A DNA stretch of 64,000 nucleotides from Alphaproteobacteria bacterium (GTDB lineage Bacteria; Pseudomonadota; Alphaproteobacteria; RF32; CAG-239). The notes under the pieces are model-generated. The model had not been told where the DNA came from. It did no database searches and saw nothing but the letters and a program-made list of their open reading frames with translations. A program made the translations under genes and the position numbers. Below are positions 4,402-64,000 of this stretch, in pieces. The DNA lies in the NCBI GenBank assembly GCA_017480745.1, contig JAFUSA010000005.1:4462-68461 (forward strand), given 5' to 3'. Positions within the stretch are counted from its first letter, which is position 1; each line of letters starts with the position of its first letter.

Positions 4402-4502
4402 AAAATAATCTATCAACACAATTATACTGCATAACACAAAATTATGTTTACTTTTATGAATAATTACATATAATCCTCTCGATTTTGATAAGGAGTCTTT
4501 AT

Positions 4503-5873
4503 ATGTATTACAGTCTATCCGAAATTTTTGCCATAGGTATAGGTCCATCCAGTTCACACACTGTGGGTCCGATGAAAGCCGCCAAACGTTTTGTTGATGG
4601 TTTGCAAAACAAAATATCGTTGGTGGAAAATATAAAAATATATCTATACGGTTCTTTGGCTTTAACGGGAATCGGGCACGGAACACCAAACGCCGTTGTT
4701 TATGGGCTTTTAGGTTTTGAAGCGGATAAAATAGATATAACGCAAAACTATATTCAACGCATAAATAATGAAAAATCTTTATTGTTAGGTGGCAAAAAAA
4801 ATATTCCGTTTGATTTTAATACAAACTTTGTTTTAGAAAAGACTATCTTTCTCAAAGAACATTCAAACGGTATGAAATTTGTCGCCTTAGACGGCAATAA
4901 CAATATTATTGCCGAGGAAACTTATTTTTCCATTGGAGGTGGAACCATACTCCGACAAGATGAATTTGCACATCAGGAAGAACGCAAACCACTCAATGTT
5001 CCGTATCAGTTTTCAAGTTTTGCCGAATTGAAGAACATTTGCGAACATAATAATTTATCAATAAGTGATGTAGTTTTAGCCAACGAACGTGCACTGCATT
5101 CTGATGATGAAATTAAGGCTTACTGCAACAAAATAGCGCAGATTATGCAGCAAAACATTAATGACGGAGTGAGTAAAAAAGGCATTTTACCGGGGGTAAT
5201 TAAATTACGTCGCCGAGCACCGGAAATGTATGAAAATTTACAACAACGCTTTGAAAACAATGTTGATGATGCGTTATATGTATTGGATTGGGTAAACTTG
5301 TGGGCTTTTGCCGTTGCAGAAGAAAACGCTTCCGGCAGTAAAATAATTACGGCTCCGACCATGGGCTCGGCTGGTATTATGCCGGCAGTTATGCGCTATT
5401 ATCAAAGATTTGTGCATAAAAAAGCTTATTATGATGAACAAGCAGATATTGTTTATTTAACCACAGCAGCCGCCATTTGCTCTTTATATCGAACAAACGC
5501 TTCAATTTCCGGCGCTGAGGTTGGCTGTCAGGGCGAAGTAGGAGTAGCTTGTTCAATGGCTGCGGCCGGTTTATGCGCAGTTATGGGAGGCAATATTAAC
5601 CAAATTGAAAACGCGGCGGAAATCGCCATGGAACACAATTTGGGGCTTACTTGCGATCCGGTTAAAGGATTAGTGCAAATCCCGTGTATTGAGCGTAATG
5701 CTATGGCAGCCATCAAAGCCGTTAACGCCAGTCGCTTGGCTTATCGAGGATCCGGAGAGCATAAAGTTAGCTTGGACAGCATTATTAAAACAATGTATGA
5801 AACCGGTTTAAGCTTGCAAAGTGCCTATAAGGAGACTTCTTTGGGCGGTTTAGCCACTAATGTTTTATGCTGA
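4503..5873 (+). CDS. sdaA: L-serine dehydratase (single-chain, iron-sulfur dependent)
   Basis: GIGPSSSHTVGPMKAA near the N-terminus and full-length collinearity with SdaA-type enzymes. I prefer the ATG at 4503 (AAGGAG at 4490-4495) over the upstream TTG at 4485. Confidence 0.9.
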   Translation: MYYSLSEIFAIGIGPSSSHTVGPMKAAKRFVDGLQNKISLVENIKIYLYGSLALTGIGHGTPNAVVYGLLGFEADKIDITQNYIQRINNEKSLLLGGKKNIPFDFNTNFVLEKTIFLKEHSNGMKFVALDGNNNIIAEETYFSIGGGTILRQDEFAHQEERKPLNVPYQFSSFAELKNICEHNNLSISDVVLANERALHSDDEIKAYCNKIAQIMQQNINDGVSKKGILPGVIKLRRRAPEMYENLQQRFENNVDDALYVLDWVNLWAFAVAEENASGSKIITAPTMGSAGIMPAVMRYYQRFVHKKAYYDEQADIVYLTTAAAICSLYRTNASISGAEVGCQGEVGVACSMAAAGLCAVMGGNINQIENAAEIAMEHNLGLTCDPVKGLVQIPCIERNAMAAIKAVNASRLAYRGSGEHKVSLDSIIKTMYETGLSLQSAYKETSLGGLATNVLC

Positions 5874-5976
5874 TTCAATTATCTGATATATGCCGCAAAA
5901 TAATTTTGACTACCTACAAAACTGCCGACGCCATTACAAGCATCGGCAGTGCGCTTGATTATTTTGCAAAAATAGT

Positions 5977-6242
5977 TTGACTTTTGCATTTTTTATGATA
6001 TAGTGAGGGAAGAACTTCGGTTCGGAGCTTTGACAAGCTCTTGCTAAGTTAGGTGTTTTAGGACACCGTAGTAAAGATATAATGAATATCTCCGATGTGG
6101 TCGGGGAGCCTGTGATGGATGTTCAGGGCTTCTGCCTAAAGATTACAGGAATCGTTTAACTTAGCATGATTTGTCAACTCTCCGATCGCCGTTTGGCGGT
6201 CTGTTTTTTTTAATAAACAACTTTAACAGAGGAGATAAAATT
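5977..6242 (+). promoter_or_regulatory. Promoter plus type B structured leader of pilin-like gene P1
   Basis: TTGACT (5977-5982), 16 nt, then TGaTATAGT (5996-6004). The leader has GAAC-UUCG-GUUC (6012-6023). A long-range pairing joins GCUAAGUUA (6043-6051) to UAACUUAGC (6157-6165). The box GUCAACUCUCC (6173-6183) precedes the hairpin GAUCGCC-GUUU-GGCGGUC (6184-6201), which is followed by a T8 run. Confidence 0.7.
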
Positions 6243-6893
6243 ATGAAAAATTTTGAAATTAAAAATGAGTCCGGCAGAAGTATGATAGAAATGTTAGGCG
6301 TGCTTGCCATCATTGGTGTTTTGAGTGTTGGCGGAATCGCCGGATACAGCAAGGCGATGACTAAATATAGAATCAACAAAACCATTGAACAAATAACTCT
6401 TATTGCCGGTAATGTGCGTGCGTTCTTTGCTCCGCAACACAATTATGATGGACTTGACAGCTGCTCTGATGATAACTCTTATTGCAAATTAATCAGAAAA
6501 GCCAAACTAATACCGGATGAAATGTGGGATGATACTTATAAAAGATTTAAAAATGTGTTTGGGTATAGGGTTGATTTAATGACGAAAAATAGGTCTACTG
6601 ATGGCGACAAGCAGGCATTTGATATTTATTACTCTATAGGAGATAATATGGAAACCTGTATAGAATTGTTAAGTTACGACTGGCGTATGTCTGGTGCGCA
6701 AGCTATTCAAATCGGTGGTCCCGCGGGGGCTGTTAATTTTAAACTTCCCGTTGCCGTAGATAAAGCTGTTGAGGCATGTTCGGAAACTATCAGTAAAAAC
6801 CGGATGTATGGAGGATCCTTTCCTGATATGCTTTTTTTCTTTGATATAAATTTAAACAGCACATATTGGAGTTCTTTGACTTGGGCAAATTAG
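6243..6893 (+). CDS. Type IV pilin-like protein P1 (class III signal peptide)
   Basis: MKNFEIKNESG|RSMIEMLGVLAIIGVLSVGGIAGYSKAM. Gly at -1, Glu at +5, then a hydrophobic helix. ATG at 6243 follows GAGGAGA. The ORF-track extension to 6171 runs through the leader RNA. Confidence 0.85.
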   Translation: MKNFEIKNESGRSMIEMLGVLAIIGVLSVGGIAGYSKAMTKYRINKTIEQITLIAGNVRAFFAPQHNYDGLDSCSDDNSYCKLIRKAKLIPDEMWDDTYKRFKNVFGYRVDLMTKNRSTDGDKQAFDIYYSIGDNMETCIELLSYDWRMSGAQAIQIGGPAGAVNFKLPVAVDKAVEACSETISKNRMYGGSFPDMLFFFDINLNSTYWSSLTWAN

Positions 6894-26219: not shown

Positions 26220-26457
26220 AGTAAACTTCCTTTCATTATTAAAATACCTACAAAACGATACCGCCCTTATGAGGCGGTCGGAAGTTGACAACTATCACGA
26301 TAATAGTATGAGCTATTTGAATTATCTTATTCACCCATCTTCCAACCATAAAGTCGGAAATTATTTAACGTCCTTACGACGATCGTGAGAGGTTGTCACA
26401 CCCCAGACGAGTTACCTCATCTTGTGTTTATATTATCACAAAAAATCTAAAAGTCAA
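26220..26457 (-). promoter_or_regulatory. Promoter plus type A structured leader (P2 copy)
   Basis: Minus strand: TTGACT (26452-26457), TGaTAATAT (-10 at 26430-26435). H1 AGAUGAG-GUAA-CUCGUCU (26405-26422). Anti-SD box (26278-26287). Hairpin CCGCC..GGCGG (26261-26277). SD GGAAGUU (26224-26230). Confidence 0.75.
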
Positions 26458-33610: not shown

Positions 33611-33852
33611 AGTAAACTTCCTTTCATTTAACTAAATCACTAATAAAAACGACACCGCCCGATAAAGGCGGCCGGAAGTTGACGACTATTTTAGCTTAAA
33701 TAGTGTTGCGTATTCGCATATAACCTATTCCGCAACCTTCCAGCCACAGCTGGATTTTTTACGCCCATAAGGCGAAGCTAAAAGAGGTCGTCAAACCCCA
33801 GACAAGTTACCTTATCTTGTCTTTACTATATCATAAAAAACTTAAAAGTCAA
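33611..33852 (-). promoter_or_regulatory. Promoter plus type A structured leader (P3 copy)
   Basis: Minus strand: TTGACT (33847-33852), TGaTATAGT (-10 at 33825-33830). H1 AGAUAAG-GUAA-CUUGUCU (33800-33817). Box (33672-33683). Hairpin CCGCC..GGCGG (33655-33671). SD (33615-33621). Confidence 0.75.
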
Positions 33853-42826: not shown

Positions 42827-43066
42827 AGTAAACTTCCTTTCATCAAATTAGTTATTTCATTACAAAATTAACCGCCCACTGAGGCGGCCGGAAGTTGGAA
42901 ACTATACATAGAAATAGTGAGATCTATTTGATATAACCTATTCAATCTCCTTCCGACCAAAGTCGGAAACATTTTACGTTTAGACAACGCCTATGTAGAG
43001 GTTTCCACACCTCAGACGAGTTACCTCATCGTGGTTTTATTATACAATAAAAAATTTCAAAGTCAA
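42827..43066 (-). promoter_or_regulatory. Promoter plus type A structured leader (P4 copy)
   Basis: Minus strand: TTGACT (43061-43066), TGTATAAT (-10 at 43039-43044). H1 GAUGAG-GUAA-CUCGUC (43014-43031). Box (42888-42898). Hairpin CCGCC..GGCGG (42872-42887). SD (42831-42837). Confidence 0.75.
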
Positions 43067-48990: not shown

Positions 48991-49234
48991 TTGACATTTA
49001 AGTTTTTTATGGTATCATAAAAACAAGATGAGGTAACTTGTCTGGGGTGTCGAAACCTCTCAACTTTCGTCTGTTATGGACGTTAAATTTTCCAGCATGG
49101 CTGGAAGGTTGCAGAATAAGAATGAGTATCGAATATGCAACACTGTTTAAAGTTGACAGTTTCGAACTTCCGGCCACCTCATGAGGTGGTTAATTTTGTA
49201 ATGAAATAACTAATTTAATGAAAGGAAGTTTACT
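48991..49234 (+). promoter_or_regulatory. Promoter plus type A structured leader (P5 copy, reference copy)
   Basis: Promoter: TTGACA (48991-48996), 16 nt, then TGgTATCAT (49010-49018).
Helices: H1 49026-49043 (GUAA loop), H2 49044-49059, H3 49068-49082, H4 49090-49106, H5 49142-49160.
Platform: box AACUUCC 49165-49171, palindromic hairpin CCACCUCAUGAGGUGG 49174-49189 followed by a U-rich tract, SD GGAAGUU 49224-49230. Confidence 0.8.
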
Positions 49235-63898: not shown

Positions 63899-64000
63899 TT
63901 TACATTTGCAACCTTTATGATAGTATAGATTCAGAACTTCGGTTCGAGAGCCTTAAGAAGCTCTTACTTATCACGGTGTTATTTTCGAAGCATCGTTAGA
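63899..64000 (+). promoter_or_regulatory. Promoter plus 5' part of a second type B leader (cut by window end)
   Basis: TTTACA (63899-63904), 16 nt, then TGaTAGTAT (63918-63926). GAAC-UUCG-GUUC (63934-63945) and GAGAGC..GCUCU follow, collinear with 6012-6040 of the P1 leader. Confidence 0.6.

Follow-up and report, generated by a model that had tools for sequence, protein, structure and literature searches.

The window analysed here, a stretch of 64,000 nt on an alphaproteobacterial contig, contains five complete pilin-like genes whose N-terminal coding regions are almost identical. Four of these genes are preceded by a leader designated Type A, and the remaining one, the P1 gene, by a leader designated Type B. 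The Type B region (5977-6242) is bounded by a serine dehydratase gene (4485-5873) and by the 216-aa P1 gene, and consists of a sigma-70-type promoter, a structured RNA, an intrinsic terminator, and a spacer that carries the ribosome-binding site (Table 1). The first-pass annotation had read this region as a true structured leader, equipped with a promoter and a terminator of its own and recurring before pilin-like genes, and this reading is borne out: the Type B leader is a real, conserved member of a cis-regulatory RNA family that is absent from Rfam.

Table 1. Elements of the Type B leader region and related leaders in the window
Feature	Position	Strand	Details
Sigma-70-type promoter	5977-6004	+	-35 TTGACT 5977-5982, 16-nt spacer, TG-extended -10 TATAGT 5999-6004
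P0, 5' hairpin GAAC-UUCG-GUUC	6012-6023	+	three of four pairs never vary; one A-U to G-U change
P1 5' strand	6024-6051	+	P1a GGAG 6024-6027, P1b UUGACAAG 6030-6037, P1c GCUAAGUUA 6043-6051
P2 hairpin GGUGU/ACACC	6052-6067	+	3/5 pairs compensatory
P2a, weak AU-rich hairpin AGAUAU/AUAUCU	6075-6091	+	0 to -3.9 kcal/mol; predicted in 12/16 copies
P3 hairpin UCUCCGAU / GUCGGGGA	6089-6107 (6089-6096/6100-6107)	+	covariation (helix 4)
P4-P5 arm	6109-6149	+	P4 CCUGUGAU 6109-6116 / AUUACAGG 6142-6149; P5 6126-6129/6134-6137
J4/1, (G/A)AUCAUUU (AAUCGUU in window copy)	6150-6156	+	single-stranded in Fold I
P1 3' strand	6157-6183	+	P1c UAACUUAGC 6157-6165, loop AUGAU, P1b UUUGUCAA 6170-6177, P1a CUCUCC 6178-6183
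Intrinsic terminator GAUCGCC-GUUU-GGCGGUC + U8	6184-6211	+	hairpin 6184-6201, U8 6204-6211; terminator scan
Spacer with ribosome-binding site AGGAGA (6230-6235)	6212-6242	+	read from sequence
Pilin-like gene, 216 aa (P1 gene)	6243-6893	+	prepilin N-terminus G/RSMIEMLGVLAIIG, Bundlin/PilS domains
Type A leader	49021-49190	+	upstream of another pilin-like gene of the window
Type A leader	42871-43036	-	upstream of another pilin-like gene of the window
Type A leader	33654-33822	-	upstream of another pilin-like gene of the window
Type A leader	26260-26427	-	upstream of another pilin-like gene of the window
Second Type B copy	63899-64000	+	-35 TTTACA 63899-63904, -10 TAGTAT 63921-63926, P0 63934-63945, P1 5' strand, P2

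The P1 gene encodes a type IV(b) pilin as judged by its N-terminus G/RSMIEMLGVLAIIGVLSV, with Gly at -1, Glu at +5 and a hydrophobic helix, and by Pfam scores above cut-off (PF05307, 36.8 bits with a cut-off of 22.3; PF08805, 29.9 bits with a cut-off of 22). The protein is identical to one of a MAG labelled Alphaproteobacteria bacterium (locus tags IJ525_), and its family is very large, with at least 7,973 relatives at E <= 0.001 among 8,000 scored candidates.

The promoter matches the sigma-70-type consensus at 10 of 12 positions in a promoter scan, the upstream TG being present. Similar promoters lie upstream of 16 of the 17 full-length Type B copies, and that of the 17th (L030) was read by eye. 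The distance from the promoter end to P0 is ~7 nt, counted in both window copies, and by this geometry the transcript would start at P0. An A-rich tract (e.g. TTTTGCAAAAATAG) at 5955-5976 abuts the -35 box and is conserved at the equivalent site in all copies of both leader types, and is reminiscent of an UP element or of a site for a shared regulator.

The terminator, which sits between leader and ORF exactly where it had been annotated, features a 7-bp stem with five GC pairs followed by T8, as is expected of the hairpin of an attenuator platform. The hairpin is kept in 16/16 Type B copies, with one compensatory pair, and the U tract in 14/16, the copies on L003 and L004 being without a good one. 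The spacer from terminator to pilin gene measures 31-36 nt in most of the 16 copies, before an AGGAGAU-type SD and ATG; in two of them the length was left unmeasured because the script halted at an upstream in-frame TTG or GTG. The spacer is too short for a second promoter, so that pilin transcription must run through the leader.

Type B leaders are placed exclusively upstream of pilin genes or pilin remnants, among copies that were reached via pilin proteins. This arrangement bears on the reading of the leaders as independent sRNA genes, according to which each unit would encode an abundant, structured ~200-nt RNA acting in trans (e.g. by cross-regulation of pilin paralogs or titration of a protein), with pilin expression as a by-product of read-through. 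Each unit indeed has its own strong promoter and terminator, many copies occur per genome, an intact leader persists beside a decayed pilin remnant (L026 292-491), and the Type A alternative fold resembles the trans-acting sRNA-Xcc1, though below threshold. The spacer, however, is too short to house a pilin promoter of its own, all copies are linked to a pilin gene or remnant, and no candidate target complementarity was identified, and we regard sRNA genes of this kind as distinctly improbable.

Some copies deviate from the standard arrangement. On L026 (110-491, minus strand), the intact Type B leader precedes a 50-aa pilin remnant that is without a transmembrane segment. On L009 (5450-5847, plus strand), a Type B leader that falls outside the 16 is deleted from P3 to the ribosome-binding site and precedes an 84-aa pilin remnant. 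Two copies on L012 (5693-5890 and 9912-10000, plus strand) carry insertions of 90-200 nt between terminator and ribosome-binding site; both start with a second terminator-like hairpin (AACCGTTGCTCCGGTT plus a T-rich tail) and are related in sequence to each other, and the insertion may be a small repeat element. One of the 16 checked copies is interrupted by a contig end.

The second Type B copy had likewise been noticed, together with its own promoter, and both are confirmed. It is cut by the window end and, 3'-truncated as it is, scores 44 bits to the Type B model. Extension past 64000, proposed in the first-pass annotation as a check for a following pilin-like gene, was achieved on longer contigs of the same organism, reached via the rpsF-like protein encoded beside 63899. 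On L001 (9592-9797, minus strand), the copy is full length and has the same core, closing helix, terminator and 3' platform; a 228-aa Bundlin/PilS pilin-like gene lies 33 nt downstream. L003 is a diverged allele of the 63899 locus and supplied a third Type B sequence.

Fold I and its covariation

The segment 6008-6212 folds with a minimum free energy of -74.5 kcal/mol (z = -5.15), and 0/200 dinucleotide shuffles fold as well. A covariance model seeded from the three first sequences was run on contigs of the closer P1-pilin homologs and found 17 full-length Type B leaders at 150-218 bits. All homologs stem from metagenome contigs of herbivore-gut type—the gut origin being read from study codes—that were reached through pilin proteins. 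Exact patterns taken from the conserved core gave two matches in the genome contig collection and five in the metagenome, all of them chance matches as judged by the covariance model.

Sixteen copies support the resulting secondary structure, Fold I: standard pairs occupy 97.2% of pair cells, versus 35-48% with slid partners; compensatory, that is both-sided, changes are found at 33/61 pairs; and the covariation score is 0.531 versus 0.208 in shuffles, a value reached by 0/500, the copies being related paralogs and orthologs, whose counts are not independent events. The G-U pairs in the helices fix the strand that acts as RNA.

P0 had been proposed as a hairpin with a UUCG loop, and it is nearly invariant among homologs. 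The proposed 9-bp long-range helix (6043-6051 with 6157-6165) is real, conserved in homologs, and covaries at all positions; it constitutes only the inner third (P1c) of a closing helix of ~25 bp. This helix, P1 (6024-6051 with 6157-6183), comprises 25 pairs, 16 of them compensatory. On its 5' strand, a conserved internal loop (G)CUCUU separates P1b from P1c, and the pairing register of the 3' side of P1a (CUCUCC, 6178-6183) is ambiguous. The hairpin P2 stands as first annotated and is followed by a conserved GUUA, which reads GUAG in the window copy.

Within the closing helix, the annotation had placed a GAGCCUG/CAGGGCU hairpin at ~6105-6130. This hairpin was dropped, as covariation yields P3, which had been missed, together with P4 and P5 in its stead; P4 alone covaries at 8/8 pairs, all compensatory, and P5 at 3/4. 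The P4-P5 arm is specific to Type B and features an internal loop in which GGAUGUNCA (6117-6125) opposes AAAG (6138-6141), both nearly invariant. Junction and loop nucleotides thus stay invariant though all eight P4 pairs have drifted. The GGAUGU of this internal loop resembles half of the CsrA SELEX consensus, and CCUAAAG resembles part of an 11-nt tetraloop receptor or of a UAA/GAN module; to our knowledge, no k-turn consensus fits the Type B leader.

A pair of positions outside the helices also deserves mention. Positions 6029 and 6150 (alignment columns 21/149) are unpaired in Fold I and covary perfectly, being C-G in 10 copies and U-A in four; neither Fold I nor the second fold described below accounts for this covariation. 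A search for pseudoknots and tertiary contacts over all column pairs was too noisy, columns 21/149 alone standing out.

Type A and Type B as subtypes of one family

The first-pass annotation had considered the Type B leader unrelated to Type A and had seen two different sensor-like domains wired to one gene family. The former view is refuted and the latter finds no support, given the common architecture and the shared junction motifs. A covariance model built from Type B alone matches the Type A leaders over its full length, with scores of 20-46 bits; the best alignment covers model positions 1-201 with 46 bits (E = 7e-15, filters off). The elements brought into register are P1b, P1c, P2 with its GUUA, P3, P4, J4/1 and the terminator. 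Minimum-free-energy folds agree: 8/8 Type A folds contain P1, P2, P3 and P4 in the same order as Type B, and P0 and the terminator are formed as well in 7/8, the leader at L012:1553 pairing its 5' end with the terminator region instead. The junction motifs common to both types are CUCU, CGUUA, UCC..GG(A/G)AG, AUUU and AU(A/G)(G/A)UU; likewise common is a CUUCC or CUCUCC stretch that is followed by a GC-rich terminator stem. Type A therefore shares with Type B the promoter type, the element order P0-P1a/b/c-P2+CGUUA-P3-P4-J4/1-terminator, and the alternative pairings treated below. Types A and B are two structural subtypes of one RNA family that differ in peripheral modules.

The differences are confined to few elements. 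P0 of Type A has 6-7 bp and a GUAA tetraloop, whereas that of Type B has 4 bp and UUCG. P4 of Type A is a simple hairpin whose large loop contains AAUA; it is without the GGAUGUNCA/AAAG internal loop and the P5 of Type B. In addition, the helix letters differ, with UUCC/GGAA in Type A versus CUCC/GGGG in Type B. The two types thereby represent a natural experiment in which the core is shared and the peripheral modules are exchanged: a UUCG versus a GNRA P0, and an extended versus a plain P4.

On L032 (2895-3070, plus strand), a Type A leader with a Type A-style ribosome-binding site precedes a pilin that is 78% identical to that of P1, so that leader type and pilin body have been reassorted by recombination. 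In the window itself, the segment 55600-55930 (plus strand) holds a Type A leader that is without promoter, P0 and 5' part, adjoins a YjbR-family gene (Pfam label via L001), and is fused at its terminator to a 5'-truncated pilin frame (GIAGYSKAMMKYRINK..., 62 aa). The arrangement suggests a pilin remnant or a silent copy.

Such exchange raises the question whether the block from the promoter to the N-terminal coding region acts as DNA, namely as a recombination or gene-conversion cassette for pilin variation in which RNA structure is incidental. The near identity of promoter, P0 and the first ~60 codons among paralogs, the reassortment of leader type and pilin body, and the existence of truncated remnants would all suit a cassette. 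We nevertheless hold this to be extremely improbable: the helices have diverged by compensatory changes rather than being homogenised, and only one strand, read as RNA, allows the conserved G-U pairs.

A second set of pairings

The leaders hold a second set of complementarities, Fold II. Fold I and Fold II are mutually exclusive, and the pairing potential for both is present in all Type B copies. Z (GGUCGGGGAG, 6099-6108), which comprises the P3 3' strand and its neighbours, is complementary to W (CUCUCCGAUC, 6178-6187), made up of the P1 end and the four initial bases of the terminator stem; the Z:W duplex amounts to -14.5 to -20.8 kcal/mol in all 14 non-redundant Type B copies. J4/1 (AUCRU) pairs in Fold II with AUGAU (6166-6170) on the 3' side of the P1 internal loop, with five pairs that are 100% pairable. 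The third helix is a local hairpin GAGC(U)...(A)GCUC (6025-6040) around the P1b 5' strand, 98% pairable. It had been annotated as GAGCU-uugaca-AGCUC; it lies outside the main fold, its loop being the P1 5' strand that covaries with 6170-6177, and fits Fold II. The AGAUAU/AUAUCU hairpin of the annotation (P2a) is in a similar position: it is weak and overlaps the first 3 nt at the base of P3. Both of these annotated hairpins are present in the forced alternative fold.

Taken over Type B, the 19 Fold II-specific pairs are 96.7% pairable, versus 34-61% when slid. Changes in the Fold II helices within Type B are one-sided and wobble-compatible only, and the shuffle tests are not significant (Z:W permutation p = 0.11). 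Between the types, all three helices are swapped as pairs: Z:W is GGGGAG/CUCUCC in Type B versus GGAAG/CUUCC in Type A, the J4/1 helix is AUCAU/AUGAU versus ACUAU/AUAGU or ACUGU/ACAGU, and the local 5' hairpin is GAGC/GCUC versus GGGGU/ACCUC, these swaps amounting to one or a few evolutionary events. Within Type A, W variants match their own Z, CCAGCC occurring only with GCUGG and CCGACC only with GUYGG, by a manual count of three and four informative cases with none discordant.

P0 and the terminator are complementary as well. When the terminator 3' strand is omitted, 6-9 pairs join the loop and 3' strand of P0 to the terminator 5' strand in every Type B minimum-free-energy fold, CGGU of this loop and strand being the part able to do so; under the same omission, the best non-terminator fold is separated from the minimum by only 2.4-6.7 kcal/mol. 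For Type A, it is the 5' strand of P0 (GAUGAGGU, or GAUAAGG) that shows complementarity to the terminator 5' half (ACCUCAU, or CCUUUAUC), with duplexes of -7 to -12 kcal/mol and an own-versus-cross permutation p of 0.04. A dual constraint on P0 from its own hairpin and from terminator pairing is a plausible reason for its invariance.

With moderate confidence, we favour the reading that Type B is a subtype of a previously undescribed family of bistable terminator/antiterminator leaders that gate read-through into type IVb pilin genes. The sigma-70-type promoter would start the transcript at P0. In Fold I, the ~25-bp P1 would clamp the junction of P2, P3 and P4-P5 and leave the terminator free, and transcription would stop ~30 nt before the pilin ribosome-binding site. 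In Fold II, the P3 3' strand would take up the P1 3' end together with the first bases of the terminator stem, J4/1 would pair with AUGAU of the P1 3' strand, the P1 5' strand would collapse to the local hairpin, and P0 would lend its CGGU to the rest of the terminator 5' strand; jointly, these pairings would prevent the terminator from forming, and the polymerase would proceed into the pilin gene. The co-transcriptional choice between the folds would be set by an effector, which may be a small molecule or a protein, and the invariant nucleotides of the junction and of the P4 internal loop are likely the recognition surface for this effector, as judged by their conservation. The RNA structure and its conservation, the kinship with Type A, the placement before pilin genes only and the potential for both sets of pairings are shown; we infer a working terminator, a switching of the folds, and the existence of an effector. 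In the window copy, the forced Z:W fold lies 16 kcal/mol above Fold I, so that any switching would need kinetic control or an effector. A P1 of ~25 bp, moreover, is unusually long for a ligand-gated aptamer and counts against a switch.

These energetics lend weight to a simpler view, in which the leader is a constitutive structural 5' UTR that stabilises or processes a highly expressed pilin mRNA—for example by protection from 5'-end-dependent RNase E decay or as an RNase III site in P1—and the terminator a leaky, fixed attenuator that senses nothing. The position of P0 at the predicted 5' end, the standing of Fold I as by far the thermodynamic minimum, the near-continuous duplex of P1, and promoters near consensus are what such a UTR would display. 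A simple stabiliser, however, needs neither invariant junction and internal-loop nucleotides amid fully drifted helices, nor a second, exclusive set of complementarities kept in both subtypes via swapped pairs, nor a complementarity between P0 and the terminator, and we consider a purely structural role unlikely though still credible.

A working switch would add to the riboswitch-like or attenuator RNAs an orphan class that is new, supported by covariation, with two subtypes and both conformers mapped. It would explain the choice among the very many type IVb pilin paralogs that are near-identically promoted in one genome, and would be relevant to adhesion and to surface variation in an uncultured gut lineage of which little is known. 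The more specific idea that the two types form structural subclasses of a new riboswitch class seems quite unlikely; they would bind a signalling molecule (e.g. a cyclic dinucleotide), or two ligands via their differing P0 and P4, and would gate dozens of dispersed pilin paralogs. If it held, the pilin repertoire would be under ligand-programmed, even mutually exclusive, control at the level of transcription elongation.

Comparison with known RNA families and regulatory systems

A scan against Rfam, which had been suggested for this leader, assigned it to no family at the gathering threshold. With Rfam 15, the whole window yields two tRNAs only at gathering thresholds, and the region 5900-6300 yields chance-level matches only at E up to 10, the best being Hrs13 in the terminator region with E = 0.089. 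The c-di-GMP-I, c-di-GMP-II, T-box and other Rfam riboswitches have no match in the Type B region at E up to 10. No account of a leader of this kind emerged from literature searches.

Two known modes of control were tried and rejected. Leader-peptide attenuation of the trp type would use a 25-codon ORF (AUG 6082 to UAA 6157-6159, plus strand), and the start codon of this ORF is AUA in L001, as read by eye. Anti-SD control would draw on UAUCUCC in P3, which is complementary to the Type B SD GGAGAUA, and on ACUUCC, which is complementary to the Type A SD GGAAGU. A Type A leader, however, occurs with a GGAGAU SD (L020 9794) and a Type B leader with GGAAAU (L029), and the link between leader type and SD looks like co-inheritance.

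Type A resembles sRNA-Xcc1 (RF02221), an integron-associated small RNA of Xanthomonas (PMC2996969). The matches lie at 49099-49183 (plus strand, 29.4 bits) and 42878-42958 (minus strand, 28.4 bits), with E values of 0.002-0.005 and a gathering score of 53, so that they fall below threshold and Type A does not qualify as a member. The Type A alternative fold (outer Z:W, P4 and the J4/1 hairpin) spans the whole 87-nt model and shares some loop letters; the same model has no match in the Type B region at E up to 10. As outlined in PMC2996969, the genomic context of sRNA-Xcc1 is unlike that of the pilin leaders, and the resemblance serves as a lead rather than as an assignment.

The closest functional precedent is the class II c-di-GMP riboswitch that sits upstream of the type IV pilus cluster of C. 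difficile (PMC11477304). Both systems place a structured leader between a promoter and a pilus or pilin gene. Like this riboswitch and riboswitch attenuators, the Type B leader has a terminator right after the closing helix and a potential for mutually exclusive pairings, and multiple copies per genome are possible. Type B differs in having no sequence or structure match to the C. difficile riboswitch and in its very long closing helix; furthermore, the host is an uncultured alphaproteobacterium, in which each dispersed single pilin gene carries its own copy of the leader.
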